DNA of 64,000 nt from an uncultured archaeon (GCA_964559215.1 CAZLFZ010000003.1:18779-82778); one strand, 5' to 3'. Shown: positions 26,855-60,700, numbered from the stretch's first letter. Made by a program: numbers and translations. The notes: a model not told the origin generated them from the letters alone.

Positions 26855-26861
26855 TTTCCCT

Positions 26862-27410: not shown

Positions 27411-27540
27411 CGTTACCTCGCGCTTCTACAGATCACGATTCGTGTTATGTTTTTCGTATTTTATTTTTATATGCTCTGCTTAATTAAGTTTTGGTAAGAA
27501 GCCTCATATTTATTAACGAAGAGAATACTTAAGATTTAAT

Positions 27541-28089
27541 ATGAAAAGTTTGGAAAGTTTAAACAAAATCCTTGAAAATGTGCTGAAAAAGAGGGCAATA
27601 ATTCTGCTCTCGTTTCTAAGCAAGGAATACAGAACTGGGATGACGAATCTAATAGCCTTTGCGACACACACGTTCAATAAGACCTGCTACGTCACGCTTA
27701 ATGATCCCTACGAAAGTATAGCCAGCAGGCTGGATGAGGAGCAGAAGTCCAAGCTGTTCTTCATAGACTGCATGACGGCTACGATCAAAACACCGGAGAC
27801 AAAAGAAAATGTGGTTTTCGTGTCGTCACCCCACGCTTTGACGGAGATGAGCATAGCATTAAAAAAAGTCATGGAAAAGGAAAAAATTGATTTTGTCATA
27901 TTTGATTCAATTTCAGCTTTGCTGGTTTATGAACAACCCTTATCGGTCCTGAAATTCGTTCATAGCCTAATCCTGATGTCCAGGGAAGCGAATCTGGGTA
28001 ACTCTTTTGTAATCCTGAAGGAGGATGTCAGCGAGCAATTGATGAAAGACCTGGCCATGTTTGTTGACAAAATTGTGGAGGTGGTATGA
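27541..28089 (+). CDS. Walker-A-less KaiC/RecA-fold small protein (MEDS-like), 182 aa
   Basis: Paralog of 26862-27410 (FFIDCMTA .. VIFDSISALLVYEQ .. VILKEDV). The stop TGA at 28087-89 is immediately followed by the GTG start of the PAS protein. Confidence 0.75.
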   Translation: MKSLESLNKILENVLKKRAIILLSFLSKEYRTGMTNLIAFATHTFNKTCYVTLNDPYESIASRLDEEQKSKLFFIDCMTATIKTPETKENVVFVSSPHALTEMSIALKKVMEKEKIDFVIFDSISALLVYEQPLSVLKFVHSLILMSREANLGNSFVILKEDVSEQLMKDLAMFVDKIVEVV

Positions 28090-28998: not shown

Positions 28999-29064
28999 TA
29001 ATAAGTAAATAATATTAATTAATATTATATTAATAATTATTTAAACAAAGTATAACAAAGTATA

Positions 29065-31451: not shown

Positions 31452-31525
31452 TATCAAGCTGCGTTTAAACAAATTCTATTCGTGTTTATTTAAATATCAT
31501 ATAAAACAAAAATATTATAGGTAAC

Positions 31526-32623: not shown

Positions 32624-34351
32624 ATGAAGAACCTTAGCGTTCGCGCTAAGATAATTTCGATTTCAACACTAATAATGCTTTTTGCACTTAGCTTAAACAG
32701 TTTTTATAGCGGTAATTTCTTCGCGGCTGAATATTCCAAAGCCCTCCATTCAAAGTCATTAAACGTAGGGCAGGTTTTAACGCAACGCTTAGGCGTCTTG
32801 CTTGAATTGGGAATAGACATAAATGGAATTGTGGGTTTCGAAAAACAATGCAAAGATGTAGTCGAGAACTACGAGGAAATCTCGTATGCCATGGTCGTGG
32901 ATTTAGACGGCAAGATAATTTTTCACAACGACCCTTCCCAACACGGCAAAACATTGACTAATCATGAAGTTCTAATGGTGATAAAAACCGAGAATAGTAC
33001 CACTAGACAGCACTCCATTGAAGGGGAGAAATTCTATGGCAGCTTTGTCCCTGTCTTTGGCAAAGATAAAAACCACATCGCAGCAATTATGGTAGGGGTT
33101 CCTGTGAGTTTTATTGAAGAAAAGATGCGAAACATGTTCATGAACTCTCTCATGGTTACGATTTTATTTCTGGTTATTGGCATATTGTTGTTGATTACTA
33201 CGCTTTCCATGTGGGTAACAAAACCGCTTGGAAAATTGGTCGATGTGATTCGGGAAATAGGGGAGAAGGGCAAACTTAGCAAAAAGGTTAGAATCAATTC
33301 CGATGACGAGATAGGACAGCTCGCCTCCGCATTCAACCAGATGATAGATGATTTAAAGGGGTCGAGGATTAAGCTAGAGGAATACAGCAGGTCTCTGGAA
33401 AAAAGGGTCACCGAGAGGACAAATGAACTGAATAAAAAAGTCGAGGAAGTGACAAAGACGAAAACGGCCATAATGAACATGATGGAAGATACGGACGAGG
33501 CGAACAAACAGCTTATAAAAACCCAGAAGGAACTGAAGGAAAGCTTGAGGGAACTGAGAGAAATGGACATAAAGAAGGATCAGTTCATATCAATCGCAGC
33601 GCATGAACTCAAGACTCCACTGACATCCATTCACGGATTCTCGCAGTTGCTTCAAGATAGGAAAATTGCAAATAAGTTCACGAGGAGGAACAGATACCTT
33701 AAGATAATGGAACATGAAAGCAAAAGGCTTGCCGGGCTTGTGAGCAATATTCTTGACCTATCCAGGCTAGACCTCGGGACGGTGAAGCTCAGTCTTGAAC
33801 CAGTTGATATGAACGAACTAATGGAGGATTTAAAAAAGGAAATGAGTATACCGGTAGAGGAGAAGGGGCTGGAATCGAAATATGAAATAGAAAAAGAGTT
33901 GCCAAAAATTTTAACAGACAGGGAGAGGGTGACCGAGATATTGATAAACTTCATAAACAACGCTTTGAAGTACACGTCGAAAGGTAAAATAACGGTAAAG
34001 GTTTCCAGGGAAAAGAAAAATCTGCATTTCATGGTCAAGGACACGGGAATAGGCATATCAAAAGAGAACCACGAAAAGATATTCCAGAGGTTCTATCAGG
34101 TGGATTCATCCTATACAAGAAAGGCAGGGGGGACAGGTCTTGGCCTGTCCTTGTGCAGGGAATTCCTAAAAATACTCGGCGGGGAGATATGGGTAAAGAG
34201 CGAACTGGAAAAGGGGAGTGAATTCCACTTTACACTGCCCATCAGAGGCGTTTCAAAAGAGCATCTCTGGGAGGAGGAAGCAAAGGCTAAAGAGAGTCTC
34301 AAAAAAGCAGAGGAAGTGATAAAAAGTGTGGAAATACTGAGCGGAAAATAA
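32624..34351 (+). CDS. sensor histidine kinase (TM-sensor-TM-HAMP-coiled coil-HisKA-HATPase_c)
   Basis: HAMP KPLGKLVDVIREIGEKGKLSKKVRINSDDEIGQLASAFNQMIDDL; H-box ISIAAHELKTPLTSIHGF; N/G-boxes ..INNALKYT.. DTGIGIS..GGTGLGLSLC. Confidence 0.9.
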   Translation: MKNLSVRAKIISISTLIMLFALSLNSFYSGNFFAAEYSKALHSKSLNVGQVLTQRLGVLLELGIDINGIVGFEKQCKDVVENYEEISYAMVVDLDGKIIFHNDPSQHGKTLTNHEVLMVIKTENSTTRQHSIEGEKFYGSFVPVFGKDKNHIAAIMVGVPVSFIEEKMRNMFMNSLMVTILFLVIGILLLITTLSMWVTKPLGKLVDVIREIGEKGKLSKKVRINSDDEIGQLASAFNQMIDDLKGSRIKLEEYSRSLEKRVTERTNELNKKVEEVTKTKTAIMNMMEDTDEANKQLIKTQKELKESLRELREMDIKKDQFISIAAHELKTPLTSIHGFSQLLQDRKIANKFTRRNRYLKIMEHESKRLAGLVSNILDLSRLDLGTVKLSLEPVDMNELMEDLKKEMSIPVEEKGLESKYEIEKELPKILTDRERVTEILINFINNALKYTSKGKITVKVSREKKNLHFMVKDTGIGISKENHEKIFQRFYQVDSSYTRKAGGTGLGLSLCREFLKILGGEIWVKSELEKGSEFHFTLPIRGVSKEHLWEEEAKAKESLKKAEEVIKSVEILSGK

Positions 34352-35543: not shown

Positions 35544-36665
35544 ATGACTCGATTCTCTGATATCAAGATTCACGATACCACCCTCAGAGACGGCGAACAG
35601 ATGCCTGGTGTTGTCTTTGATTTTAACGAAAAAATCAAGCTTGCTGAAAAAATAATGCAATTTGACGCGGATTTGATTGACATAATGCCCGTGGTTTCCG
35701 ATTCAGAGTTCAGGGTCACAAAAGAACTCACGGATATGTTTGGTGATAAGGTTTCTGCTACATGCAGAATCAAAAAATCGGATGTAGATATAGCCATGGA
35801 TGCGGGTGCCGAAAGGGTCACACTGTTCACACCGCTTTCTGATTTGCACATAACCCACAAACTGCGGATAAGCAGAGAGGAAAATCTCAAAAAGACGTCT
35901 GAAATGGTTGATTATGCAAGAGCCCACGGACTGATCGTGGATTTCGCAGGGGAAGACACGAGCAGGGCCGACTTCAATTATTTTAAGCGATTTTTAAAAG
36001 AAATCCACAACAGGATATCCGTATTCTTCATAGCCGATACTGTCGGCTGTCTTACCCCCAAATCTACAAGAAACTTGGTCTCTTACCTTAAAAAGAATCT
36101 CAACTGTCAGGTCGGAATCCACACGCACAACGATTTCGGCATGGCAACCGCAAACGCCGTGGAGGGCGTGCTTGCGGGGGCTGATTATTTTTCAGGAACC
36201 TTTACGGGGATTGGAGAAAGGGCTGGAAACGCAGCAATCGAAGAGGTCTGCATCGCATTGAAGCACTTGCATGGAAGGGACCTTAAAGTGAAGTCCGAAA
36301 TGCTGCTGGAAATATGTGACATGGTCCAGGAATTCTCAGGTGTGAAGATTCAGCGACACAAACCTGTTATAGGGGAAAATGCCTTTGCCCACGAATCAGG
36401 GATTCACGTAGATGGGGTTCTTAAAGATCCGAGAACTTATGAGTTTTTTGAACCGGAATCGGTAGGGCAGAAAAGAAAGATTTGCATGGGCAAGCATAGC
36501 GGGAGGAGTATTCTGAAGCACATGTTCGGTGGGGGAATCCTTCAGGATTCCAGCGTTGCCATCAAGGAGATAAAAGCCATCTATGAGGCCAAGGATGTTC
36601 CTTTCTCACGCAAAGATGCTGCTATCAAGTTGTCATGGGTGAAGAAGCGTCTGGTGACTGTATGA
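35544..36665 (+). CDS. HMGL-like DRE-TIM metallolyase: short-form 2-isopropylmalate/homocitrate/citramalate synthase family
   Basis: IHDTTLRDGEQMPG, HTHNDFGMATANAVEGV, GIGERAGNAAIEEV. 373 aa, lacking the LeuA C-terminal regulatory domain. Confidence 0.85.
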   Translation: MTRFSDIKIHDTTLRDGEQMPGVVFDFNEKIKLAEKIMQFDADLIDIMPVVSDSEFRVTKELTDMFGDKVSATCRIKKSDVDIAMDAGAERVTLFTPLSDLHITHKLRISREENLKKTSEMVDYARAHGLIVDFAGEDTSRADFNYFKRFLKEIHNRISVFFIADTVGCLTPKSTRNLVSYLKKNLNCQVGIHTHNDFGMATANAVEGVLAGADYFSGTFTGIGERAGNAAIEEVCIALKHLHGRDLKVKSEMLLEICDMVQEFSGVKIQRHKPVIGENAFAHESGIHVDGVLKDPRTYEFFEPESVGQKRKICMGKHSGRSILKHMFGGGILQDSSVAIKEIKAIYEAKDVPFSRKDAAIKLSWVKKRLVTV

Positions 36666-37474
36666 AGGGTAAGGCTGTTTGGCTCGTCTACAGGAAGCTG
36701 AGGCCGGCATTCGGGATATCTTTCGCCTTCATACTCCTGTCGGGAGTGTTCTTGGGAGTCATGAATTTCAAGGTCATCATGGCTGCACTGGGGTTCCTTT
36801 TCATAGAGCTTTTCGCGGCTTTCTACAACGACTACTGGGATTTTTCCGATGACATAAAGAACGAGAGAAAGGACAAATTCACGACCCTTGGCCTCATGAG
36901 CACGAGGTCGTGCCTGTACCTGTCCCTCATCCTGGCATGCCTGTCCTTGATCTTCCTTATGTTCACAGACACATCTTTCCTGATGATTGGTATACCGTAC
37001 CTAGCGCTTGGGTTCCTCTATTCCCACAAGAGGGTCAGGCTGAAGGGGACGATCACCGGTTATGCTATCCTCTCATCCCCCTTCTTTATCCTCCCGCTAC
37101 TCATCGCGGGTGCAAATGGCATTCCGCTGACGAGAGCCATGCCCATATCCACCTTCCTCTTCTTCCAGTACATGTACATACTCTGCCAAAAGGATTCGAC
37201 AGACATGAGGGACAAGAAGAATGTCTTCATGGTCTATGGCTGGAAGAGAACGAGTATGTCTGTAACCCTTTTCAGTATCTCGGCTTCTATTTCGTTGTTC
37301 ATCATTTCTTTATCGTTTCCCCCATTGATGCTGATATGGTTATTCAATACGGCACTGAAGTCACTCAACATAAAAGACATAGCAAAGGGCACCGTAACGA
37401 GAGGAAGGCGGGGCAGAATCATTCTGCTCGACTATACCACAGAATACCTTTATATCTTAGGTGGATTACTGTGA
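36662..37474 (+). CDS. UbiA-family prenyltransferase (ATGA overlap with the upstream stop)
   Basis: NDYWDFSDDIKNERKD (NDxxDxxxD motif); about 8 TM helices. Start moved to the ATG at 36662 (MKGKAVWLVYRKL) overlapping the TGA at 36663-65. Confidence 0.8.
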   Translation: MKGKAVWLVYRKLRPAFGISFAFILLSGVFLGVMNFKVIMAALGFLFIELFAAFYNDYWDFSDDIKNERKDKFTTLGLMSTRSCLYLSLILACLSLIFLMFTDTSFLMIGIPYLALGFLYSHKRVRLKGTITGYAILSSPFFILPLLIAGANGIPLTRAMPISTFLFFQYMYILCQKDSTDMRDKKNVFMVYGWKRTSMSVTLFSISASISLFIISLSFPPLMLIWLFNTALKSLNIKDIAKGTVTRGRRGRIILLDYTTEYLYILGGLL

Positions 37475-38235
37475 TTAACGAAATGCTGGATTTCATCAGA
37501 TTCAGGATATGCCTCACTATCTTTTTCACCTCCGCATCCGGATACCTTTTGTTCAATCCGGTGGGCTTGAATTTGCTCATTGCTGCCTTGAGCTCTTTTT
37601 TTGTTTTCTCGGGAGGATATGCATACAATAACATATTTGACAGGAAGGAGGACATCATAAACAGAGGGAGAATAAACCCTTTCGTCAAAAGCGGGAAGAG
37701 CTACCCCATAGTGTTTCTTTGCTTCGCCGCTGGGTTCCTGCTTTCCCTGCTTTTGCCCCCACATTCCATTCCTTTCTTCATTCTGATGTTAGGAGCAAAC
37801 ATTTTCTATTCGTTACTCAGAATCAAAAGATACACCCTTTTGAAAAATTTGTACACAGGTTTCGGCATATCACTAGCCTTCCTCTTCGGTGCCATAACGG
37901 GTTTTGAGCTCAACGTTGAGGTCATGGCATATTATTTTCTGATGTCGCTCCTGATTTTCATTGGAAGTGTGATCTCGGACCTGAGGGACTACGATGGCGA
38001 TGAAAAGGCAGGCATAAATACGATTCCCGTGACCTTTGGTTTCCACAAGACAAAAAATATGGTATACATACTCCTTGCACTGCTTTCCTTCCTGGTCGTA
38101 TTCTTCCACAGGGTTATTGTCCTGCTTCCATTCGTGTTCGCAACATTCATTTATCTATATAAAAACAAGATCTCATTTGCACACTCGTTCGGAGGGCTCT
38201 CCTTGATAGCTTTGAGCATATGGTTATTGCTGTAA
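37471..38235 (+). CDS. second UbiA-family prenyltransferase (GTGA overlap; alternative ATG at 37483)
   Basis: YNNIFDRKEDIINRGRINP and DLRDYDGDEKAGINTIP Asp-rich motifs; polytopic membrane protein. The track ORF 36910-38235 has an unrealistically early start in this frame. Confidence 0.8.
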   Translation: MINEMLDFIRFRICLTIFFTSASGYLLFNPVGLNLLIAALSSFFVFSGGYAYNNIFDRKEDIINRGRINPFVKSGKSYPIVFLCFAAGFLLSLLLPPHSIPFFILMLGANIFYSLLRIKRYTLLKNLYTGFGISLAFLFGAITGFELNVEVMAYYFLMSLLIFIGSVISDLRDYDGDEKAGINTIPVTFGFHKTKNMVYILLALLSFLVVFFHRVIVLLPFVFATFIYLYKNKISFAHSFGGLSLIALSIWLLL

Positions 38236-40622: not shown

Positions 40623-41297
40623 CTAGATGACCTTGGTTTCTGTAAGTCTTATGTATTTGTTATCTATTAAAAGCTCGTGGGGCAGCTTGGCATCGAAATT
40701 TGTGTATCTCATCTTATGCACTACCAAGGCCCGCATGGGCTTCTCCTCGAGCTCCAGGAATATCAACTGCATCACGCCATCACATTCAAATGATTCATGA
40801 CCGCTTGAATCCAACTTTTCATCAGAGTCTGTTTCGCACAAAAGCAGCGAGGATTTTGCGTTTTTCAGGCTGTTGATAAGCTCTATGAAGTAGGCCCTGT
40901 AAGATTTCTTGCTCTCAGAGAACATCAGCAGCTTGTTGACATTATCTATCACTATTCTGTCTATTTTTGGGTAGCTCGAGATAATGTCTATAAACCTCTT
41001 CATGGACAAATTGCTCTGAGCCATTGGTATGTATTCTATGGCCAGGTTTTTCCCCATGTATTTTTTCACACTGTTCAGGGATTTTACGGACTCGCATGCC
41101 TTGATTAACTCCTCTTTGTTTTCATTTAGCGTTATGTAACAACATTTCTCACCTTTTTTGGAACCCTCTAGCATAAATTTTAGACCCAGCAGCGTTTTTC
41201 CAGTTCCCGGACCTCCGGAAAGCAAAATGACCGACTTTTCTGGGAACCCTCCGGCTAGCATGCTGTCCAGTTTTTTCAGGCCTGTTGTGACTCTCAT
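40623..41297 (-). CDS. single-domain KaiC-like ATPase (start at internal ATG with GAGGAGGA SD; track ORF extends to a TTG at 41327)
   Basis: GLKKLDSMLAGGFP, Walker A GGPGTGKTLL, ..IVIDNVNK.. Confidence 0.85.
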   Translation of the reverse strand: MRVTTGLKKLDSMLAGGFPEKSVILLSGGPGTGKTLLGLKFMLEGSKKGEKCCYITLNENKEELIKACESVKSLNSVKKYMGKNLAIEYIPMAQSNLSMKRFIDIISSYPKIDRIVIDNVNKLLMFSESKKSYRAYFIELINSLKNAKSSLLLCETDSDEKLDSSGHESFECDGVMQLIFLELEEKPMRALVVHKMRYTNFDAKLPHELLIDNKYIRLTETKVI

Positions 41298-41298
41298 A

Positions 41299-41628
41299 TC
41301 AATCCTCCTCAAATTTTGGTATACCAAGCCTGGAGCTTTTTATTTTTATCAGCAGGAATGCGTCACCGTCCAAGGCAAAGATGTTTGATGGCACTTTCTT
41401 TTCCATCATTTCAATGCCGAATTTTCCCAGTATCTTTTTTGGCAACATTATCCTGTTGCTGTTGCCTAATTTCCCTGTTGTGAGGCTGTAAGTGAGCGAG
41501 TCTTTCCCGCAAGGCAGGAGAAGAATGTCAGTCACGTGATCTTTCAGAATTTTATATTCAGCCATGTTGATGGAAAGCTTTATTTCAATCCCACCGTCAT
41601 GCATATTAATGCCTTTTATCTCGGCCAT
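41299..41628 (-). CDS. small protein with C-terminal AbrB/SpoVT/MazE-like swapped-hairpin motif, immediately upstream of the KaiC gene
   Basis: ..GNSNRIMLPKKILGKFGIEMMEKKVPSNIFALDGDAFLLIKI resembles the AbrB-N consensus (GRivIPkeiRkkLgi..gd.v.i...d..i.L.k). Its stop lies 1 nt before the KaiC ATG. Confidence 0.55.
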   Translation of the reverse strand: MAEIKGINMHDGGIEIKLSINMAEYKILKDHVTDILLLPCGKDSLTYSLTTGKLGNSNRIMLPKKILGKFGIEMMEKKVPSNIFALDGDAFLLIKIKSSRLGIPKFEED

Positions 41629-41727
41629 AGTAGATTAAAACACCCAAAAGATTTAAACTTTTCTGTTTTTTGTATATTTTTTCGATTTAAATAAAAATCT
41701 TTTTAATCCCAAAACGAATTATTATTC

Positions 41728-42585
41728 ATGCTAAAAACAATAAAGGGGGGGGAGGTGCAGGAATTAAAACCCGAAAACGAAAGGGCGCCAGCACAGAAAA
41801 AAAGGACCGCTAATAAAAAAAAGGTACCAGAAGCGAAACTTCAGCAAAAAACAGATCAGCACGAGTTCATAAAAACAGGCATACCGGGCCTCGACGCCCT
41901 CTTTGAACACGGGATACCAAAAAAATCTAGCGTGCTTATTGCTGGCGGTGCCGGTTCCGGCAAGACCCTGCTCTGCTTGCAGATTATGGTCAATGCTGCC
42001 AAGGCCGGCAAGAAATGCATGTACATGTCCTTTGAGGAGTCCGCCGCCAGGCTGAAAAACCACATGGAAGAATTTGGCTGGATTTTAGGGAAATATGAAA
42101 AGAACGTTGTTATAGAGAGGTTCAACCTGTTCGACATTACCAGAGTCATAGATGCGCTGCTTGCGAAGCAATCAGGGGATTTGCTTATAGATGTTAAGCC
42201 TGTCCTATTCCCGGAAAATTTCAAGCCGGATATTATAGTTATTGATTCTCTGACAGCCATAGCTTCCGCTTTTAGCAAAAGAGAAGAAACCTACCGGATA
42301 TATATAGAACAGCTTTTCAATTATTTCGAAGAGTTGGGGGTTAGTACATTCCTTATATCAGAGACTGAGCAGGAGCCTAGAATATTCAGTCCAACGGGGG
42401 TAGAAGAGTTCCTCGCTGATGGGGTCATTATTCTTTACAGCATAAGAAAAGCAAATGTCAGGGAAAATGGACTTGAAGTACTCAAGATGCGGGGCGCGAA
42501 GCACAAGAAAAAAATCGTGGCCATGCAGATACTTGATAAGATAGGCATAGAGGTTTATCCGGAGCAGGAAGTTTTCGGCGTGTGA
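41728..42585 (+). CDS. single-domain KaiC-like ATPase with Lys-rich N-terminal extension
   Basis: GIPGLDALFEHGIP, Walker A GGAGSGKTLL, ..IVIDSLTA.., C-terminal ..LEVLKMRGAKHKK. Confidence 0.9.
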   Translation: MLKTIKGGEVQELKPENERAPAQKKRTANKKKVPEAKLQQKTDQHEFIKTGIPGLDALFEHGIPKKSSVLIAGGAGSGKTLLCLQIMVNAAKAGKKCMYMSFEESAARLKNHMEEFGWILGKYEKNVVIERFNLFDITRVIDALLAKQSGDLLIDVKPVLFPENFKPDIIVIDSLTAIASAFSKREETYRIYIEQLFNYFEELGVSTFLISETEQEPRIFSPTGVEEFLADGVIILYSIRKANVRENGLEVLKMRGAKHKKKIVAMQILDKIGIEVYPEQEVFGV

Positions 42586-50009: not shown

Positions 50010-51503
50010 ATGAATTCAAGATTCTTAATTCCGGTGTTTGTTTTAATATTCATAGTTTTAATACCCACCAGCCTCTTTGGAGGTCTTGAGACAGCGAGGG
50101 AGATAGCAAAATTCTTCGCACCCCAAAATCATCCGGGTGTAAGCTACGCATGTCCAGACTGCAATCTACTCATCTTCACAATTGACACCCTCAGAGCTGA
50201 CCACATTTCATCTTATGATTATTTCCAAAAAACAAGCCCTGTTATCGATTCTGTTGCAGAGAAGGGAATAACCTTTACTAACGCATTTTCCCAAATTCCT
50301 CACACCCCCCCATCCCATTGGTCCATATTCACATCTCTTTATTCGTACAAGCATGAAAAATTCTTGCCTGGAGAAAACGGAACAGGACTCACCACCCTGT
50401 CCGATATTCTCAAAGATAACGGCTATTTGACAAGCGGTTTTATAAGCAGCTGGATACTTATCGGATTCAACGATGAATTTGATTATTTTAACGGGTACGG
50501 ATACAAGGACAAAAGAAGAAACAAGAGATTCCTTTCAAAGAAAGCGGTTGAAACTACCGAAGCTGTTCTGCCCTGGCTGGAAAACCACTCCGGTGAAAGA
50601 TTTTTCTTGTGGGTTCATTATTTCGACCCGCACAGCCCTTACGACCCGCCCGAGGAATATGACATCTACAATTACACCGTCACCAGTGTTTATTCTGATG
50701 CAAAATACGAGCAGATCGGCCTTTCAAGGACAGGACCAATAAGAGGAGACATAGCAAAATATGACGGTGAAGTGAGATATTCAGATGAAAACATAGGTAT
50801 TGTTCTCAAAAAACTGGAAGAGCTTGGGCTTATAAACAACACGCTTGTAATAATTACCGCTGACCATGGAGAATGCTTTGGTGAACACAATTTTTCCAAC
50901 TTCGGATACGAGGAGGAAAAGCCGTGCATTTTCCATGGAAAAACATTGTACGATGAAGAGATACACGTACCCTTTGTAATATTCAATCCGCACTCCCCGT
51001 CGAAGAACGTGAAAATAAACGATTTGGTGGAAACCGTAGACATTATGCCAACGGTTCTGGATATTCTGGGCATAACCAATGAGCCTGAAATTGACGGCGA
51101 AACTCTTGTTCCCCTTATCCGCGGGGTTAGAAAGACGAAGAATTACAGCATATCACAGACAAGGCCGATAAAGAACAGAGCCTTTTCGATAGGTATCAGA
51201 ACAAATGAGTGGAAGTTCGTGATCATGGCACCTGGTGAACTAGAACTGGAGAAAGACATTGCAGAACAGGAGGGTAAAAGTGTAAACTTCACAGATTATG
51301 AGGGGGAGGCGGGGGCTCCAGTAAAAAAATTATTATTCAATGTGAATGAAGGGGAAAATAAGAATTATGTTGAAGTCGAAAGAGACGTGGCCGGGGCTCT
51401 TGAAAGTCAACTGAGAGATGCGATTTCCGTTAGGGGATTTCCCAAAACAGTTTCAATTGATGAAAAAACGGAGGATTTGTTGAAATCGCTTGGTTACATT
51501 TAA
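50010..51503 (+). CDS. sulfatase-family (alkaline-phosphatase superfamily) protein with non-canonical active-site motif
   Basis: FTIDTLRADH (metal-binding Asp motif), ITADHGECFGEH. The position of the C-x-P-x-R formylglycine motif reads HTPPS instead. Confidence 0.82.
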   Translation: MNSRFLIPVFVLIFIVLIPTSLFGGLETAREIAKFFAPQNHPGVSYACPDCNLLIFTIDTLRADHISSYDYFQKTSPVIDSVAEKGITFTNAFSQIPHTPPSHWSIFTSLYSYKHEKFLPGENGTGLTTLSDILKDNGYLTSGFISSWILIGFNDEFDYFNGYGYKDKRRNKRFLSKKAVETTEAVLPWLENHSGERFFLWVHYFDPHSPYDPPEEYDIYNYTVTSVYSDAKYEQIGLSRTGPIRGDIAKYDGEVRYSDENIGIVLKKLEELGLINNTLVIITADHGECFGEHNFSNFGYEEEKPCIFHGKTLYDEEIHVPFVIFNPHSPSKNVKINDLVETVDIMPTVLDILGITNEPEIDGETLVPLIRGVRKTKNYSISQTRPIKNRAFSIGIRTNEWKFVIMAPGELELEKDIAEQEGKSVNFTDYEGEAGAPVKKLLFNVNEGENKNYVEVERDVAGALESQLRDAISVRGFPKTVSIDEKTEDLLKSLGYI

Positions 51504-51660
51504 TTTAATTTCATATTAAATTGTCGACCGACATTTGACATTGAGATTTGGTTTTCATGGAACTGTTTTTGAACCCATGTGAATCCATGTTTAATGTGTA
51601 TTATCCCATAACATTTCGGGACACCCCACAGTTTTTAATGCAGGAATCATAATGCAGAAA

Positions 51661-52545
51661 TCACATATACCCAAGCGACCGCAGTCGCCTCATCGTGAAC
51701 TCCCGCTCTTTGTCCTGCGCCCTGCCGGCTCTTTCAGGGGTTTTGGTAATTTCCAGTTCCTGGATTATCTCATCGATACTAGACGATGCCGATTTTATGG
51801 GTGATGTGCAGCACCGGCATCCGAGTGACCTGTACCGCAGGCCATTCCTCGCGAAGTAAAGTGGATTTACAGGAAGATTCTCCCGCTTCGTGTATCTCCA
51901 TACATCCAATTCAGTCCAGTGCAGTATTGGATGCACCCTAACATGTGAGCATTCTTCACCAAAGTCGGTCTGGTACAAGTTCCACAGCTCTACAGACTGC
52001 AGAGACTCAAACGGGGCATCACCCATTTCTCCCCTGGTTTTTGGCCTTACAATGTGCCATTTGAACTCTTTGTCTCTTGGCGAGAAATATCTTTCTATGT
52101 TTCTCATATAATGCTCGTCCCTTCTTATGGACAATATCAAAGCGTCGAAACCATGCTTTCTGAGAACCTGCTTTAGCGCTTCTGTTTTCAAAGCCGTGCA
52201 ACAGAAAAAATGGCCGTCCCTTTCTGGAGAAACGCCTCTTTTCATTGCTTCCCCGTTTTTCCCTATTATAAGATTAAGGTTCCATTCATTCGCTAGCGTG
52301 TCCCTGAACTCGTAAATCTCCGGGAACTTGCGTCCTGTATCCAAGTGTATGACGGGAAAGGGGATCTCACCAAAAAACGTACTCCTAATCAGATGGAGCA
52401 TGCACGTAGAGTCCTTGCCGGTTGACCAGAGCACCGCGGGATTCTTGAACCTTGATCTGACCTCTTTCAGTATGTACTCTGTCTTGGATATCAAATCTTT
52501 CATAGGTCCATTAGACTTTGTCCAAGCACTCATATTAACACCCAC
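51661..52545 (-). CDS. PAPS-reductase/ATP-sulfurylase-small-subunit family (PF01507-like) protein
   Basis: ..AVLWSTGKDSTCMLHLI.. (SGGKDS-type PP-loop), ..YRSLGCRCCT... The probable true start is at the internal Met (52533 or 52503). Confidence 0.8.
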   Translation of the reverse strand: MGVNMSAWTKSNGPMKDLISKTEYILKEVRSRFKNPAVLWSTGKDSTCMLHLIRSTFFGEIPFPVIHLDTGRKFPEIYEFRDTLANEWNLNLIIGKNGEAMKRGVSPERDGHFFCCTALKTEALKQVLRKHGFDALILSIRRDEHYMRNIERYFSPRDKEFKWHIVRPKTRGEMGDAPFESLQSVELWNLYQTDFGEECSHVRVHPILHWTELDVWRYTKRENLPVNPLYFARNGLRYRSLGCRCCTSPIKSASSSIDEIIQELEITKTPERAGRAQDKEREFTMRRLRSLGYM

Positions 52546-52549
52546 ATTT

Positions 52550-53326
52550 TTATAAAGTCAAGTAAAGTTTCAAAATCATCAATGCCCCAAGTGACGTTAT
52601 GAAAGCGCCCAGTATAGGTTTGCTGCGCTTGGATTCCATCCGCTTTGTCAATAATGTGCCAAAAGGCGTAGCGGCAATTGCGCCTATACATAACACAAAC
52701 AGCAACCCCCATTCTGCTATTCCATTCAAAAACACATAGGAGAGAAAGCCTGCGAGACATATAGGCGATTCAGCCACAGTCGTACATCCTATGGAATCCC
52801 TTTGGCGGTTTCCTGATATAATCTGACCTCCAGTGACTACCGGGCCAAAACCCCCGCCCGACAGACCTTTGTTGAATGCTGCCAGAATTCCAACACCTAT
52901 CATTTTTTTCCATGAAAAACTGAATTTTTTATTTATCAACATTATTATTCCCACCAACGTTACCAAGAGACCTATGTACGCCATCAGGACCGCCTTTGGG
53001 ATACTTACTGCGACAAATACAGAAATGATAGTCGCTGTTACACCAAACAACGTAAATATGCATACTATATAAGTATCCCTGGAATGCTTGCTGAAGTATA
53101 TGTTTTTGCGCTTGTGATGCAAAATTCCTGCCGCAAGGCCGCTCAGTCCCTGAGACAGAAGTAAAGAAGGTATTACAAGCAGGGGGTCAAAACCGGCAAT
53201 TATCAGTATCGGTGACAGCATGGTCCCATATCCCATCCCGAGCGAACAGTCAATGAGTTCTCCTATGAATGCCAAGATTGCAATCGCTATTTGCTCCATT
53301 AACTCCACCATCTTCACGTGTGCCAA
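52550..53326 (-). CDS. TauE/SafE family (sulfite/organosulfonate exporter-like) membrane protein
   Basis: Gly-rich TM repeats ..FNKGLSGGGFGPVVTGGQI.. and ..LSQGLSGLAAGIL..; 7-8 TM helices. Confidence 0.85.
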   Translation of the reverse strand: MAHVKMVELMEQIAIAILAFIGELIDCSLGMGYGTMLSPILIIAGFDPLLVIPSLLLSQGLSGLAAGILHHKRKNIYFSKHSRDTYIVCIFTLFGVTATIISVFVAVSIPKAVLMAYIGLLVTLVGIIMLINKKFSFSWKKMIGVGILAAFNKGLSGGGFGPVVTGGQIISGNRQRDSIGCTTVAESPICLAGFLSYVFLNGIAEWGLLFVLCIGAIAATPFGTLLTKRMESKRSKPILGAFITSLGALMILKLYLTL

Positions 53327-53451
53327 TTTGCACCCGATTTTTGCCTCATAACATCATATTGCTTGCCCTTTGACCAGAGCACCGCGGGATTCTTGAATCT
53401 CGATTTGACCTCTCTCAGTATGTACTCGGTTTTGGCTTCCAAATCCTTCAT
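53314..53451 (-). pseudogene. truncated duplicate of the 5' end of the PAPS-reductase-like gene (45 codons, then frameshifted/terminated)
   Basis: Encodes MKDLEAKTEYILREVKSRFKNPAVLWSKGK.., versus the intact gene's MKDLISKTEYILKEVRSRFKNPAVLWSTGKD. DNA at 53340-53451 is about 85% identical to 52420-52503. Its ATG overlaps the TGA of the phosphodiesterase gene. Confidence 0.6.
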
Positions 53452-55586
53452 TTGACCACCAGACTTTTCCCGTCCATTTCCTCTGGTGTATCCAGACCCA
53501 ACAGAGAAAGCACGGTCGGCGCTATATCGATGAGGCTTGGATTTTCTTTTTCGATTAGAAAGTTGGTAAATATCACCCCCGGAACATAATTCCTGTCAAT
53601 CAGGTGATCACCGGTCCACACCTTCTCATTATCAGAAAAAATTTCAGGGCTTACCCCTCCAATCGCATTCTGCCAGGATATCCTGTAGCCCGGCTTAAAA
53701 CCAATGACAATATCCGGAGCATCTTTTGCATACTCCCCCCTGTAAATCTCCTCCTTCCTGTAAAGGTTCGCAATTGCCCTCATGCCCGTTTTTGGGTCGG
53801 TCAACCCCTTTAACCTTTCAATGATCTCGTTAATAAGCCGGTCCTTGTCCTGGTCTTCGACTATTCCTTTCCCTTCCCTATCTTTCAGGTTGATGTATAA
53901 GCTGGCGAATCCCAGCGAGTATGCCTTGGTTTTGCTCCAATCTACGTATTTAAACAGGTTGCCGGAGTCGTTTTCTTCGGGCTTTTTAGTTAATGTCATG
54001 TATCCATTCTTAACCAACCACGTGTTGATGCTAACAGCCCTTTCAAAGGAGCTGAATCCGTGGTCTGAGAAAACTAACAGATAAGTGTTATTGTCTATCC
54101 TGTCAAGCACTTTGCCTAGGAATGAATCTTTCTCTTTGTAATAGTCTTCTATAGCCTTTGATATTTTCAATTCACTTTTGTTCCCGGTCAGGTCCTTATT
54201 TTCCCAGCAAATGTGCTGCAGCCTGTCGCCAGCATCAAAGGCAAACGCATAAACCCCTCCGGTAAACCTGTCAAATTCGTACCAAAACATCTTTGTCCTC
54301 TCATCTTCGATATGTTTAACCTGATTCAGGAACACATCTTTACCGATTCTGCCTTCTTCCAAGGCTTTTGTGTCTTCAGGGATACCCATAGTATAGAACA
54401 GCCCTATTTCATTTGCAAGTTCTTTGCCGTATTCCCTTGGATAGGTGATGTCAACTACCGGATTCACCGGGTCTATCTGTACGGATGTTACATACATGTT
54501 AAACTCTGGCTCGATACCCAGCAGGTAGACTTTGAATATCCCGTAAACATCTGTCAGGAAATCGATTTTGAATTTAACCCTTATCCAGTCACTCCAGTTC
54601 TTGGCTCCAACTTTATACGCTGCCTCATCAATCTCTATTACTGCATAATCATCGTGCAATTTAATTTTAATCGGGACAGCGGATTCAACTATATCTTTCC
54701 CACTTTTAACGAGAGGTCCGAATATCTCGGTTTCAATCTCCCTATTATGTTCGCTTACCTTAATCACCTTCCCTACATCATCCCGATTTTTTTCATAATC
54801 CCCACTAGTGTAAAAAGAGTAGCTGTTCAAGAACCCTTTGATATCCACAACACCCAATCCGGAGAGCATTCTCCCCGTAACTTTTTCGGGTGGGAAGGTG
54901 GCGGGCCACCTTATCACAGTGGTTGGGATGCCCCCTTCACTTGTTATTCGCCAGAAGGGTATCCCCTTCATTGCGGATTTGTATGTCGTCCCAAGCAACC
55001 CTTTGCTTTGTTCGGCCAGGCTTAATTTCGGCAAATAAGTAGCAGTGTCCCTGCCAACATAATCAAATATGCCATACTTGCCTGGATTGGAACCTGTGGC
55101 AGCCGCGCTCCATGCAACGGGGGATTCAGGAGGGATGGTAGTTTCTAACCTAGAGTAATCTCCCCCTTCTTTCAGTTTTTTGAAATTCGGCAACTTGCCG
55201 TCTGCTACCATCTTTTCAACAACTTTTGGGTCCATTGCGTCAATTCCTATGACGAGCACCTTCTTTCCCGAAAAGGCCATTTCCTCCCCACCACCAAAAG
55301 TTCCTATAAAACTCTTTGTAATCCAGATATTATAGGCAGCAATTGTTATAATTATAATTATTATGATCAGAGTAAAGATAAACTTTCCCTTCTCCCCCCC
55401 TGACAATTTCCTGAGAAACCTGACAATTTTCGTTAACGCCTTTTTTAACGGTTTGAAAAAATAGGTCATTAAGAAAGCACCGACCAACGCCAAAATGCCG
55501 GCAACAAGACCCCACAAAGAACTAAACACAAGCCCCGCTGTTCCGGGGTCTATGTAAGCAAATGGGCAATGCGCTTTCGGAATCAT
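53448..55586 (-). CDS. type I phosphodiesterase/nucleotide pyrophosphatase (alkaline-phosphatase family, PF01663-like) with N-terminal membrane anchor
   Basis: ..KVLVIGIDAMDP.. ..PPESPVAWSAAATGSNPGKYG..; N-terminus MIPKAHCPFAYIDPGTAGLVF plus 2 TM helices. Start placed at the internal ATG (the track ORF reaches a TTG at 55667). Confidence 0.82.
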   Translation of the reverse strand: MIPKAHCPFAYIDPGTAGLVFSSLWGLVAGILALVGAFLMTYFFKPLKKALTKIVRFLRKLSGGEKGKFIFTLIIIIIIITIAAYNIWITKSFIGTFGGGEEMAFSGKKVLVIGIDAMDPKVVEKMVADGKLPNFKKLKEGGDYSRLETTIPPESPVAWSAAATGSNPGKYGIFDYVGRDTATYLPKLSLAEQSKGLLGTTYKSAMKGIPFWRITSEGGIPTTVIRWPATFPPEKVTGRMLSGLGVVDIKGFLNSYSFYTSGDYEKNRDDVGKVIKVSEHNREIETEIFGPLVKSGKDIVESAVPIKIKLHDDYAVIEIDEAAYKVGAKNWSDWIRVKFKIDFLTDVYGIFKVYLLGIEPEFNMYVTSVQIDPVNPVVDITYPREYGKELANEIGLFYTMGIPEDTKALEEGRIGKDVFLNQVKHIEDERTKMFWYEFDRFTGGVYAFAFDAGDRLQHICWENKDLTGNKSELKISKAIEDYYKEKDSFLGKVLDRIDNNTYLLVFSDHGFSSFERAVSINTWLVKNGYMTLTKKPEENDSGNLFKYVDWSKTKAYSLGFASLYINLKDREGKGIVEDQDKDRLINEIIERLKGLTDPKTGMRAIANLYRKEEIYRGEYAKDAPDIVIGFKPGYRISWQNAIGGVSPEIFSDNEKVWTGDHLIDRNYVPGVIFTNFLIEKENPSLIDIAPTVLSLLGLDTPEEMDGKSLVVK

Positions 55587-55678: not shown

Positions 55679-56131
55679 CTACTGTCGAATTTTGTACAAT
55701 TTTCTTCGACACTTAAGTTCGGACTCTAAAACACCCTTCAATCCCATCTCCTTCAAATATTCGCTACACCTAGTCCTTGATAAATTCAGCAATTCGCTCA
55801 GTTGGGGGGCACTCAAGCTTCCATGCTGCTGAATTAACATGGTTATCATTTCTTTTACCCTCATTTTTCTGATGCTCGGGCTGGTTTTTCCTCGACTGTT
55901 AGATTGATATAAAAACATCAATTCATCCATTTTTTCTGCAACTTCCTCGAGTCTGGTGTTCATCTTGTTGATCCTGTCTTCAAGGCCTATCTCCTTGAAC
56001 TTTTTGAAAATTATGCTTTCTAGCCTCTGGTTTACGGATTTTTGCTTTTCCAGCTCCCGGATTTTTTCCAGCTCCGAAACAGAATCGAGCTTTTCCTTGT
56101 CCATTTTACGCAACTTAAGAAACTTCATCAT
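55679..56131 (-). CDS. coiled-coil plus winged-HTH putative transcriptional regulator
   Basis: C-terminal ..MITMLIQQHGSLSAPQLSELLNLSRTRCSEYLKEMGLKGVLESE..KLYKI (wHTH). Its C-terminal 100 aa are duplicated in 18528-19028. ATG at 56131 (the track ORF starts at a TTG at 56140). Confidence 0.75.
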   Translation of the reverse strand: MMKFLKLRKMDKEKLDSVSELEKIRELEKQKSVNQRLESIIFKKFKEIGLEDRINKMNTRLEEVAEKMDELMFLYQSNSRGKTSPSIRKMRVKEMITMLIQQHGSLSAPQLSELLNLSRTRCSEYLKEMGLKGVLESELKCRRKLYKIRQ

Positions 56132-56140
56132 ACTATCCAA

Positions 56141-56212: not shown

Positions 56213-57295
56213 TTGTGTACATTAATGTATAAACTGTCAGACAGGTGCGCGCGTTTGACGAACAATCCAAATTCTACAGACCTCAGGAAGGCTATAATAG
56301 ATGCATTGCGCCAGCATCCCGAGGGCCTGACACTCAGGGACATAGCAGAAATCGTGGGCAGGCACAGGCACACGATAACGAAATACGTGTACGAGTTGAT
56401 TGGGGCGCGGGTTATCTACCAGAGGGACGTTGGTGCCGCCAAGCTATGCTACCTGAAGGAGAATTACAACGGCCCAGAGAAAGGGAAGGGCGTGAAAATT
56501 TTTAGCAACATGTCTAAGGGACAGGTCCAGCTGATGGCGCTTTTCATGCTGCTTTTGCTGGTGCCTGCAACGGTTATCGTTGCCCAAAATGTGACAAATT
56601 CTTCAAGTGGCCTTGAAGGGATGGCAACGGCTATGGACATAGAACTTAATGAAACGCTCGATGACGTTTTGAATGAGACGATCCTGGATGAAAATGTATC
56701 AGGGGATATACCTGAAGGGGAAGCCAATCACCAAGTCCCGGGCAACACGACCGAAGAAGAAACATCCGAAGAGGAAACAGCCCCCCAAGAGCCCGATAAC
56801 GTGACCGAAGAAAATATAACAGAACCAGGACTCAACATCACACAGCCTTCCGTCAATGTCACAATCAATGTCACAATAAACGAAACCCAAGAAAACGCAA
56901 CCACGAATATCACACAGCCCGAGGAAAACGTAACGATGCCGGAAGAAAACGTTACCATAGTCAATGAAACCAACGTAACCTACCCTGAAGAAAACATAAC
57001 AATACCCGGGCCACTCGAACCGGAACTCTTTGTGAACATCACATCGCCGGATAATATCACAAGAGGGGAATCGGCAAGGCTTGAGGCGGTCATTGAAAAC
57101 ACAGGCGGCGAAGCCGAGGATGTAATCCTAGAATGGATACTGCCCGATTTCTTCGTTGTTGTCGCCGGGTCTGAGCGTGAAGAAGTAGGGACTTTGGCTG
57201 CAAATTCGTCTTTTGCATCTGAAATAACGGTTTCCAGCACGATCAATGTGAGTTTGGGCATAAACGAAATCAAGGTGAGGGTGAGCTATGAATAA
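56213..57295 (+). CDS. membrane-tethered winged-HTH protein: cytoplasmic wHTH - single TM - sequon-dense acidic stalk - C-terminal CARDB/Ig-like ectodomain
   Basis: N-terminal ..AIIDALRQHPEGLTLRDIAEIVGRHRHTITKYVYELIGARVIYQR..; TM LMALFMLLLLVPATVIVA; about 30 NxS/T in 150 aa; ..ITRGESARLEAVIENTGGEAEDVILEWILPDFF... A likely start is an internal Met (about 56227). Confidence 0.7.
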   Translation: MCTLMYKLSDRCARLTNNPNSTDLRKAIIDALRQHPEGLTLRDIAEIVGRHRHTITKYVYELIGARVIYQRDVGAAKLCYLKENYNGPEKGKGVKIFSNMSKGQVQLMALFMLLLLVPATVIVAQNVTNSSSGLEGMATAMDIELNETLDDVLNETILDENVSGDIPEGEANHQVPGNTTEEETSEEETAPQEPDNVTEENITEPGLNITQPSVNVTINVTINETQENATTNITQPEENVTMPEENVTIVNETNVTYPEENITIPGPLEPELFVNITSPDNITRGESARLEAVIENTGGEAEDVILEWILPDFFVVVAGSEREEVGTLAANSSFASEITVSSTINVSLGINEIKVRVSYE

Positions 57296-57791
57296 AAGAG
57301 AAATGGAAAAATTAATCGGAAAGGGGGAAAATCGGAAGCTGGAGTTCAAGCCTTCATTGTCACAATCCAACGAGATTATTGAAACAATTTCCGCGTTTTC
57401 AAACACAAACGGTGGGAAGATTTTAATTGGAATCTCTGATTCCGCTAAAATAGTTGGGATAAAAATAGGGAAAGATACGATAGAAAAATTAACAAACAAA
57501 ATTCTCGGCAACAGCGAACCCAAAATTTATCCCAAAATTTCAGTTGAGAAAATCGATGATAAGACCGTGATTGTAATCGAAGTCGAAGAGAAAAAGTTAA
57601 CAGAACTTAACGCACGGCAGAAAGGGGCGATGGATTACGTAAAGGAATGTGGAAAAATCAGTAGAAGGGAATATTGCGACATAAACAAAGTTTCTGTGAG
57701 AACAGCATTTCTAGATCTGAAAGATATGGCCAAGAAAGGCTTTTTGCGTGAGACTGGGAAAGGAAGGTCAGTTGTTTATGTATTCAGGTAA
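57288..57791 (+). CDS. AlbA_2 (Schlafen-like, PF04326-type) putative DNA-binding domain protein with C-terminal HTH-like region
   Basis: GENRKLEFKPSLSQ...ETISAFSNTNGGKILIGISD is the AlbA_2 signature; the ATGAATAA overlap with the upstream gene suggests co-translation. Confidence 0.8.
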   Translation: MNKREMEKLIGKGENRKLEFKPSLSQSNEIIETISAFSNTNGGKILIGISDSAKIVGIKIGKDTIEKLTNKILGNSEPKIYPKISVEKIDDKTVIVIEVEEKKLTELNARQKGAMDYVKECGKISRREYCDINKVSVRTAFLDLKDMAKKGFLRETGKGRSVVYVFR

Positions 57792-60700
57792 ACGATTAGG
57801 TAAACGGTTGGGTAAACGATTGGCTCAGATCCGTTTCGGTTGTGCACCAAGGCTGAAAAGCCAGAGCTCTGTCTATATACTCAGTTTCATCCTGTCGTTA
57901 ATGGCTGTTGCGGTGTCGCTTGTTGTCACTTATGCAATTCCAATTTTGATACTCACGCTTTGCCTGGCTTCAGGCCTGGCTTCAGGTTTGCTTCTTTTCA
58001 AAAAGAAGGGATCAAGCGGCCAGACCGAGATTCTTGTTTCGATTATTCTGATGCTACTTGCTGCGGGGTCTGTTGTCGCATACAGTGCGTACAACTCGAC
58101 GATAAACTCGAGTTTCACAGGGAATTTCCTCGCTGTGGGTGTAAATGGTACGCAAAATGAAACCCCAACAATAAAAATAATAGAAAAGACGAAAACGATA
58201 GAAGTCTGGGCCAACACGTCCTTGGAATTGGGCTATTTCAACAATTCGGTAAATACAAGACTGCTGCTGGATAATGGCTCAGCCGTGCCAAATCAGACAA
58301 TAAATTTTTATTTGAATAATTCTCTAATCGAATCGGATTTAACGGATTCTGACGGATATGCAGAGATTGGATTAAATCTGGAAAACGGGACGCATTTTAT
58401 TAGAGCGGAATTTACTGGAAATCCTAAGGAATATCTCAATCGAGCCCAGGCAGAAATTCAAGTAACAATCGGGTTGCCAGAAGAGGAAAATGAAACATGG
58501 CCGGATGTTGATTTATCTATCCCTGAAGAAGTGACCAGGGGAGAAAATTTAAGTATTACTGCGACAGTAGCTGGATTCAATGTCACAAATATCACTTTAG
58601 ATTTGATTTTGCCTGAAGATTTTGAATTGCTTTCAGGGAGCAAAACAATAATTTGCGACGTTATCGATTCCTGCATTAACAATCTTTTGGTTTCAACAGT
58701 AAACGCAAGTCTTGGCGAGAAAGAAGTAACAGCAACAGCTTCCTCGGGTAATTTGAACATTTCAAAAACAAAAACAATCAACGTGACAGAAAACATAACG
58801 CAACCGGAAATAAAAATATTGAAAATAGAAGCCCCTGATATAGTGAACCAATCAGAAGAATTTGAAATAAAAGCCTTTATCACTTCTCTTTACGCAGATT
58901 CAACAAATGTAACAGTCCAAATAGGAACATCTCCTGAATTTGAAGTTGATGAATCTGGAAAATTAATACAAGAAATAAAGGAAAACGAATCTGTTACTTT
59001 AACCTGGGCATTGAAAGCAAATTCTTGCGGAAATTATACACTCACTGTAAATGCAGAGAACCAAGATGGAAACAAAGATTCTAAGAGTTTTGAATTAGAA
59101 GTGAAATGTCTACCGGCAGAATATGATTGGATATCTTATGACACGGAAACTGACACAATAAGAATTGTCGGTGACGAATTACACTGCACTGCTTCTAATC
59201 CTTGTACATTAACTGACATTTATAATGCAGACCAAGCAAATGGGTGGAATCAAACTGAAAAATTAAACAGCTTCTTCAAGATTAATGCAAAATTAACAAT
59301 TGGAGATGGCATAAACGAAACAAGTGTTTCATCACAAAATAAATATATCTTCTTAAATAAACCGATAGAAGTACTCGCAAAGGGTGACTTAAAATTTGGA
59401 AATCCTATTACGGGACAGGGGTGTTGGTTAGATGTAAATGTTTCAGAAAACGATCAATTAGAATATGACTCGGCTATAATAGTTCGTGACGGAGGTTCCT
59501 TATCTTTCTTTGATTCAAGTTACAGAGTTTTTCATCCAGTTGAATCAAGATGCGCACCAGGATATCCGAATTGTACTTATGAAAGAGATATTTGGATAAT
59601 TTTGAATCAAGCCTCGATGAGTAACATATATGCTGAGGAAGGTGTAAAAGTAAAACTCAATAGATTTGACATGCAAAGAAATGAATTTAATTTTCCAACT
59701 GTTTTCTTCTTACCTTCGGACGCCGAAATTAATGACACTTTGTTTACTCACGGAGGAATGTACATAGAGTTAAATGGCACGGTTGATATAAACGATGTGA
59801 TTAACGAGATTAAAAATAGTGCGGTGTTCCCGAATAAAAAAAATAAGTCAGAGGGAGGACGATTTACTCTTGCAATCACGCAAACTGAAAATGAGAATAT
59901 ATATCCCAGAGAAGAGCTGGTTAACCCATTCGATCCAATTACAAAGAACACTATAGCTTGTGGTCCACCGATTGTAGTTACTGCTGGTACTGAATCCAAT
60001 CCTGAAACAATAGAGAATATAGCTGCGGCATGCGCTTCAGTAACTAAAAGTGGAAATTATTTTGAATTTAGTGCAAACTTGGAAGTTGGTAATGCTGCTG
60101 ATACAGTAAGCTGGCTTCAGTCATTAAATGATTTTATAAGAATAAACAACAATTGGCGAGTACTGGAAAATGCACATTTAATGTTTGGTAGTTTATCTGC
60201 TAGTGGGCAACCACAGCAAGGTTCTTCAATGGAAACTGTTGTTGGGACTCAAACCTGTGACCAGGCAGCTGTTTGTGCTTATGACGATTACAATGATGCT
60301 GATTCAGGGGGTGAAATACGATTATATGATACTAACTACGATGTTGCTCATACTACCAACAGAAACAACTTAGATGTTGGTTCAACAGATTCTATGGACA
60401 ATGAACCTTATGGTGGAGTGAGTACAGCGCAACTGAGAATAAAAAGATTTACGATGGAAAGATACGAGAAACATTACAATTATATGATTCTTTACGTCCC
60501 TTCGAACACAACCATGGACGATTACTCATTTTATAGTGGAAGATATGGTATGGAGATGGCGGGTGAACCAGTACAAGAATTTACCACCGTTAACATTCAC
60601 GATGCATGTGCAGGAATAAGGATATGTTATTCCAACGGAACAGTCAGAGGTTATAAGGGTTATGACAACTATCTGGACGTAAGAATGGGATTCCACCAGT

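Follow-up and report, generated by a model that had tools for sequence, protein, structure and literature searches.

How does a transporter gene come to stand between two copies of the head of another gene? The question is raised by a short run of genes in an uncultured archaeon, within a stretch of 64,000 nucleotides (nt) (GCA_964559215.1, CAZLFZ010000003.1:18779-82778) that was analysed as a whole and is called the window hereafter, positions being counted from its first letter. All four genes of the run lie on the minus strand. A phosphodiesterase (PDE) gene comes first (53448-55586, 712 amino acids from ATG 55586; Pfam PF01663 Phosphodiest, E = 1e-32), followed by a 45-codon stub open reading frame (ORF; 53314-53451), by a gene for a TauE/SafE-family membrane transporter (TauE; 52550-53299, 249 amino acids from ATG 53299) and by a cysD-like gene (51661-52533; Pfam PF01507 PAPS_reduct, E = 2e-43), whose product has 280 amino acids from the ancestral ATG 52503 or 290 from ATG 52533. 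A preliminary description of this DNA had noticed that the 5' end of the last gene, there called PAPS-reductase-like, is duplicated on the far side of TauE, and had proposed that PDE and this gene were once translationally coupled and were later split by TauE. Our analysis makes it very probable that a cassette carrying TauE entered an overlapping, translationally coupled PDE-cysD pair, duplicating its junction, and that the two copies of the junction still recombine in the population.

The direct repeats and the cassette between them

A repeat search of the window returned a single family of direct repeats, 52414-52519 and 53362-53467, which align without gaps over 106 nt with 84% identity and lie 948 nt apart. 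The two segments agree at 89/106 positions, while the next-best ungapped match in the window reaches 48/106 on the plus strand and 47/106 on the minus strand; chance is therefore excluded as an explanation of the repeat. By tblastn, the window holds no cysD-like piece other than the intact gene and the stub. The duplication of the cysD 5' end around TauE was thus borne out by pairwise comparison, at an identity far above background, although its outline had to be corrected. The upstream copy does exist, but it starts at about 53358-53362 and not, as first placed (53340-53451), at 53340; and the repeat indeed covers the 5' coding region of the cysD-like gene but does not end there, since the 3' end of PDE is included as well. 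Followed base by base, the repeats extend over about 52410-52526 and 53358-53474, each limit being given to within about 5 nt. The similarity runs some 20-24 nt past the cysD ATG into the PDE 3' end, where 14/24 bases match in a fixed register (binomial P ~0.001). Read in the PDE frame, the downstream copy gives GQSLMDL and a stop, and the true end of PDE is GKSLVVK and a stop. On these alignments the duplicated unit is best read as the PDE/cysD junction itself, about 113 nt made of the PDE tail and cysD codons 1-27/30.

The upstream copy, H1 (53358-53474, minus strand), thus holds the last ~20-24 nt of PDE and cysD codons 1-27/30, with a GGTGG Shine-Dalgarno (SD)-like motif at 53456-53460. 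The downstream copy, H2 (52410-52526, minus strand), holds a decayed remnant of the PDE 3' end and the same cysD codons, which there form the head of the intact gene. Over 90 coding nt H1 and H2 are 87% identical, and either of them is 68-78% identical to six outgroup orthologues; since no orthologue comes closer than 78%, the two copies are each other's closest relatives. Their differences are unevenly spread: 10/24 positions in the PDE remnant, 10/54 in cysD nt 1-54 and 0/28 in the stretch that follows (Fisher P = 0.048 and 0.013). This core of 28 identical nt (53370-53397 in H1 and 52422-52449 in H2, both minus strand) is the longest word common to both copies and the inferred site of the crossover discussed below.

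The stub joins the head of cysD to unrelated sequence. Its codons 1-27/30 correspond to the cysD 5' end and its other 15-18 codons to the 5' flank of the cassette. As first described, the stub ATG overlaps the PDE stop: TCAT stands at 53448-53451, and the stop TGA (53448-53450) and the ATG are read together as ATGA. The stub also ends just ahead of TauE, its TGA (53314-53316) preceding the TauE ATG at 53299 by 14 nt, and its translation may pass ribosomes on to TauE. We considered this proximity as a sign of selection and rejected it, a stop within 15-18 flank codons being about 50% likely by chance. Three independent assemblies list the stub as a gene of 45 amino acids, and 5 contigs carry a record of it. 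It had been described as decayed. This holds in so far as the PP-loop STGKDS is broken to SKGKQY and no Pfam family matches, but not for codons 1-27, which serve as a working CysD N-terminus in strains that lack TauE (see below).

Between the repeats lies a cassette of 835 nt (52523-53357, minus strand) with TauE, its short flanks and no other gene. The TauE product matches PF01925 over its full length (profile positions 2-237 of 237, E = 4e-25, 89.4 bits against a gathering cut-off of 32.6); the open frame reaches back to TTG 53326, and gene callers use the 249-amino-acid version. The 5' flank (53300-53357, minus strand) offers an SD-like GGTGGAG at 53303-53309, ahead of the TauE ATG. Outside the TauE coding region the flanks have no similarity to any of the loci fetched for comparison, and the nearest other homologues of TauE are 55-57% identical and stand in unrelated contexts. 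The G+C content is 0.43-0.46 over PDE, TauE and cysD alike, so the cassette bears no foreign compositional signature. A single gene set between direct repeats of its target might suggest that TauE was carried in by a transposable element or as a cassette of integron type, the repeats being the target-site duplication. We give this origin practically no credence. TauE is alone in the insert, the repeat search found no inverted repeats at the insert ends, and Pfam found no transposase or integrase domain in the insert or in its neighbours within about 6 kb. The 3' flank, at 23 nt, is too short for an attC site, and no attC-like palindrome was seen in these 23-27 nt, where no dedicated attC model was run. 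Known target-site duplications are moreover shorter than the present repeat of about 113 nt by a factor of roughly ten.

The insertion also seems to have rewired the start of cysD. The old SD motif is gone from H2, where GGTGG has become AATGG. The 3' flank of the cassette (52523-52549, minus strand) brings an SD-like GGGTG (52539-52543) and a new in-frame ATG (52531-52533), which lies 30 nt upstream of ATG 52503 and has the GGGTG at -9. With the motif lost from H2 and its replacement, GGGTG and ATG together, present in the cassette flank, initiation has probably shifted to ATG 52533. The resulting 290-amino-acid start was chosen by three gene-calling pipelines, and the 280-amino-acid CysD has no exact database match, gene callers using the longer version.

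The junction with and without TauE

About 160 related loci (given L numbers here) were fetched and their synteny was scored by tblastn; the relatives came from a scan with CysD, a scan of genome contigs with the PDE protein alone having returned none. In eight distinct related lineages the cysD-like gene comes directly after PDE, and TauE is missing from between the two. The two genes overlap by 4 nt in L002, L003, L091 and L172 (read as ATGA in the first three), overlap by 1 nt as TGATG in L013, L012/L090 and L011/L104, and abut in L173. When the distinct loci are restricted to those whose CysD reaches 70% identity and whose upstream sequence is 900 nt or longer, PDE adjoins cysD in 6/6 and TauE lies within 500 nt in 0/6. 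The pair also occurs in metagenome-assembled genomes of Woesearchaeota and Nanoarchaeota (L145, L146). The single junction of the relatives aligns twice to the window, once to PDE and the stub and once to the cysD head. The SD-like CTGGTG in the last PDE codons is kept in six close relatives and in H1 and is absent from H2; the internal genes of the window often have GGTG or GGAG at -7 to -13. Contigs about 96-99% identical to the window likewise show an undivided PDE-cysD junction. With these contigs and eight lineages lacking TauE, the comparison with relatives upholds the earlier proposal that PDE and cysD were ancestrally coupled in translation and later split by TauE. The cassette as such is not present in L002, L003, L013, L012, L011, L091, L171-L173 or L175-L177.

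More distant loci show TauE beside cysD. It lies within 500 nt upstream of cysD in ten of them (L021, L025, L028, L029, L067, L095, L144, L149, L151, L160) and within 500 nt downstream in six others. One could therefore hold that TauE-cysD is the ancestral order here and that PDE, together with a 5' piece of cysD, entered on the upstream side of TauE. Those loci, however, are only 49-67% identical to the window in CysD and 22-48% in TauE, and all lineages with a CysD 74-77% identical have PDE-cysD without TauE. This order would also leave the PDE remnant 5' of the H2 ATG (P ~0.001) without explanation, as such a remnant is unexpected in a native spacer, and it has to face strains about 96-99% identical in which the junction is undivided. 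We consider it very unlikely. TauE beside cysD has instead arisen independently in at least 16 more distant loci, and the insertion in the window recreated a recurrent pairing. This recurrence suggests a functional link between the two genes. The TauE insertion is plausibly adaptive, and its polymorphism, described next, may reflect niche variation.

Two further features of the relatives concern the pair itself. The closest PDE homologues outside the population (L172 4309-7190 and L173 8001-10859, 66-68% identical) are paired with a distant CysD-like gene (49-50% identical, 261-268 amino acids), and in lineages with a CysD 75-77% identical PDE is only 55-57% identical; judged from these identities, PDE and CysD partners seem to have been exchanged between lineages. 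Genes with a LAGLIDADG_3 domain surround PDE-cysD in the relatives 76-77% identical (four or five in L002, three in L003), and none is found at the locus in the window.

The population of the archaeon itself holds both states. A CysD cluster at 90% identity contains six variants, whose N-termini read MSAWTKSNGPMKDLISK (H2 type) or MKDLEAK (H1 type). Three independently assembled TauE-bearing loci (L004, L005 and L006) have the arrangement of the window and are 99.99-100% identical to it, the cassette being 100% identical in all three; a fourth locus, L001 (97.8%), has H2 and, at the contig edge, the final 12 nt of TauE. TauE is lacking from five other contigs, whose identity to the window is about 96-99% and which were assembled from five different samples by two pipelines (JGI and Logan). 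In four of these (L171, L175, L176 and L177) PDE overlaps a 280-amino-acid cysD by 4 nt, and the fifth, L174, starts within the TauE-less junction. At the sites that tell the two repeats apart, all five contigs have the H1 bases 5' of the 28-nt core (10/10) and the H2 bases 3' of it, at both diagnostic sites (cysD nt 83-84) and at all sites farther 3'. The TauE-less junction is thus an exact hybrid of the two copies that switches in the core, as expected if the copies had crossed over where their identity runs longest. The hybrid regenerates an intact, overlapping PDE-cysD pair, and the first 27 codons of the stub are the working cysD N-terminus in the TauE-less strains. Over about 105 nt the stub differs from these strains at 2 positions, one at codon 3 (GAT/GAC; L171, L175-L177) and one just upstream in the PDE 3' end.

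Because the switch falls exactly in the 28-nt block, and because the contig of L001 ends 12 nt into TauE, we asked whether the TauE-less contigs could be assembly artefacts, made by a jump between the copies through the core. Such an origin is hardly tenable. The same junction recurs in five contigs from five samples and two pipelines. Four of these contigs carry single-nucleotide polymorphisms of a second haplotype in the cysD body and PDE segments 2-4% diverged from the window, and two variants that lie in the upstream repeat copy or adjoin it are common to all four. The longest common word is, besides, just 28 nt, less than the k-mer sizes usual in such assembly pipelines. The second haplotype, B (L171, L175-L177), differs from that of the window, A, at 31/1246 sites of the cysD body (2.5%). 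L001 and L174, compared over window positions 50200-52420, are fine-scale mosaics of A and B, which indicates frequent homologous recombination among co-occurring strains of this archaeon.

Loss or gain of TauE

An original insertion into the PDE-cysD junction is required whether the TauE-less alleles came about by loss or TauE came by recent gain. We incline, with some reserve, towards loss, with the TauE-less alleles as scarless pop-out deletions from a TauE-bearing ancestor. The insertion and the duplication of the junction would then be old and vertically inherited, and the TauE-less alleles would have arisen afterwards by recent pop-out. This history needs only a common deletion between direct repeats, and a crossover in the core gives the ACC found at codon 28 of the TauE-less alleles with no added substitutions. 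Mild support for excision also comes from the motif L[VI]SK, which is kept by the six nearest lineages and by H2 and from which H1 departs (V/I to E, S to A); H1 further has a T to K change in its PP-loop. These departures would be explained if H1 had once been a copy free of constraint. Of the differences between H1 and H2, polarisation against the six outgroups assigns 4 to change in the cysD copy and 6 to change in the stub and leaves 2 ambiguous, numbers too small to decide between loss and gain.

A duplication made recently in place from an allele like that of L171 was tried and rejected: at 4 sites H1 has a derived base and H2 the one found in the outgroups, and the 13-18% divergence of the repeats stands against 2.5% between the haplotypes.

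A recent gain is the chief rival of this history, even if we think it rather unlikely. The TauE-less allele would be native, and TauE together with the 5' part of H2 would come from a relative about 13-18% diverged, so that the divergence of the repeats would reflect that between donor and recipient rather than decay in place. Two routes can be envisaged: a Campbell-type single crossover of a circle of about 948 nt at the 28-nt core, or homology-facilitated illegitimate recombination anchored in cysD, with the illegitimate joint at cysD codon 27-30. The latter process is documented in bacteria and has been proposed to explain how the displacement of cassettes gives rise to orphan immunity genes and to 3' gene regions left orphaned (PMC3240628; PMC5361080). 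At the junction between stub and cassette, GGCAAG offers a possible microhomology, although the same bases can equally well be read as repeat.

Gain accords with the match of stub codons 1-27 to the TauE-less N-terminus at 10/10 repeat-diagnostic sites, and several observations weigh against the excision that we favour. The differences between H1 and H2 are uneven, with 42% in the PDE remnant and 13% in the coding part. Within codons 1-27 they comprise 4 non-synonymous and 5 synonymous changes. Both patterns fit no less well with two cysD 5' ends that stayed functional in separate lineages. All TauE-linked sequence seen here belongs to one haplotype, and the 148-nt overlap of L001, on a B background, has 0 differences from the window; a single cassette haplotype suggests recent spread over long residence in both backgrounds. 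Nor can the backgrounds themselves be called upon: junctions with and without TauE are found on both haplotypes, but as proof of recurrent events this was discarded, mosaic recombination as in L001 and L174 giving the same pattern. Differing breakpoints, as proof of independent excisions, were likewise looked for and dismissed, as all five contigs switch in the same 28-nt core.

Gain nevertheless has its own costs. The donor must already have had TauE, the PDE remnant and cysD, and hence an earlier insertion, which makes one event more. Its lineage would be unsampled among 5.8 billion clustered proteins, which include no cysD at 77-97% identity and no TauE at 57-100%. The stub has AAG at codon 28 where the native allele has ACC, so that the joint would have to fall exactly after codon 27 next to a coincidental GGCAAG, or two adjacent substitutions would be needed. 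Finally, it is H1, the native copy under gain, that strays from L[VI]SK, while the supposedly foreign H2 retains the motif.

Loss and gain could also be two faces of one process. The 948-nt unit, TauE with one hybrid repeat, might be a mobile cassette without a recombinase of its own, moving in and out as a circle through host recombination at the 28-nt core. We hold this to be improbable. If true, the operon would toggle between PDE-cysD and PDE-stub-TauE-cysD, both of them fully functional, while the cassette could spread between strains, and the stub and the PDE remnant would be the half-sites of a natural pop-in/pop-out switch and not debris.

Surroundings of the locus and comparison with known systems

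The products of the locus were named from their families and homologues. PDE is an alkaline-phosphatase-superfamily type I phosphodiesterase, with homologues named AlkP-superfamily phosphohydrolase, and an AT-rich, TATA-like stretch lies 5' of its ATG. The gene first called PAPS-reductase-like would be described more precisely as CysD-like on profile scores. Its product reaches 282 bits against a cut-off of 195 for the NCBIfam subfamily NF003587, but stays under the cut-offs of the subfamily TIGR02039 (225 against 397) and of the equivalog NF009214 (220 against 413); its thousands of homologues are named sulfate adenylyltransferase subunit 2 or CysD in their sources. No CysN partner (a GTP_EFTU-type gene) was found among the neighbours or the scanned ORFs of the window, a search that did not extend genome-wide. 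By tblastn the window holds no paralogue of TauE, cysD or PDE. For all three genes, the closest relatives that bear a name are metagenome-assembled genomes of Aenigmatarchaeota. Convergent to cysD stands a sulfatase-family gene (50010-51503, plus strand; Pfam PF00884, E = 2e-42), a context that is conserved in L012/L090, L091, L092 and L172, where a sulfatase is also found 3' of cysD. PDE overlapping or abutting a CysD-like gene forms a conserved two-gene module in DPANN-type archaea, often with a convergent sulfatase (L002, L003, L013, L091, L145, L146, L172, L173). In hydrothermal settings, genes for sulfate adenylyltransferase and arylsulfatase are reported to be widespread among DPANN genomes (PMC8091004).

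Other parts of the window have features of their own. A regulator gene with an HTH_24 domain (55679-56140) adjoins PDE, and its C-terminal two thirds are duplicated in a 166-amino-acid ORF at 18528-19028; the shared 309 nt are 88% identical (55679-55987 and 18528-18836, both minus strand). Next to it, the ORF at 56213-57295 has 360 amino acids with many N-x-T/S motifs and appears to encode a surface protein that evolves fast, and 56637-58883 aligns to L171 1-2735 with 86% and 74% identity and changes in gene length, against 96% elsewhere. In the regions 26084-34351 and 40623-42585 lies a signalling island that has no relation to the TauE finding; its cluster of three KaiC-like ATPase and two DUF7504 genes is accompanied by HAMP/HisKA sensor kinases, two solute-binding proteins and a PAS protein. 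At 36635-38235 (plus strand), UbiA prenyltransferase is matched by each of two ORFs that overlap in different frames. These are probably tandem genes, the start of the second being placed too far upstream, and a frameshift is possible.

Taken together, the locus offers an unusually clear record of operon remodelling, in which the pre-insertion state, the scar, the probable re-wiring of a start and the segregating insert-less allele are all seen in one archaeal population. TauE appears as an accessory, strain-variable partner of the conserved PDE-cysD(-sulfatase) module. For annotation the case is a warning, as the 45-amino-acid ORF and the 290-amino-acid cysD start are consequences of the insertion; a hypothetical ORF of 45 residues can be a recombination half-site that comes back into service when the cassette is lost.

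Among known processes, pop-out between direct repeats is what in nature corresponds to integration and excision of the Campbell type and to the pop-in/pop-out exchange of alleles that archaeal geneticists employ. As there, direct copies of the target flank the insert, the insert-less allele is an exact hybrid and the genes are intact in both states. Here, however, the repeats are short (~113 nt) and 16% diverged, and the event is inferred from metagenome contigs. The stub resembles the gene remnants left by insertions into operons, as it keeps residues 1-27/30 of 280 and the ATGA overlap and has lost the PP-loop, but differs from them in that its sequence forms the functional CysD N-terminus of TauE-less strains. 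The TauE/SafE-cysD pairs of other archaea and of bacteria (L021, L025, L028-L030, L095, L149, L151, L160 and others) also have TauE immediately upstream on the same strand. They lack the abutting PDE and the stub, and their TauE is 22-48% identical to that of the window, whose pair arose independently.

Cassette displacement that leaves orphan genes or fragments has been proposed in the effector-immunity arrays of the Vibrio type VI secretion system and in Rhs loci (PMC5361080; PMC3240628). In both settings a cassette enters beside a conserved gene end that acts as homology anchor, and a fragment of the resident gene remains. There, the resident end is replaced, whereas here the resident gene is intact and a segment of it is duplicated, and the host is an uncultured archaeon. 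The kind of event is thus already known, as insertion with target duplication and as indel polymorphism mediated by direct repeats, and no new mechanism is required. What this documented example adds is the probable shift of the cysD start, the presence/absence polymorphism of TauE and a stub that is not dead sequence.

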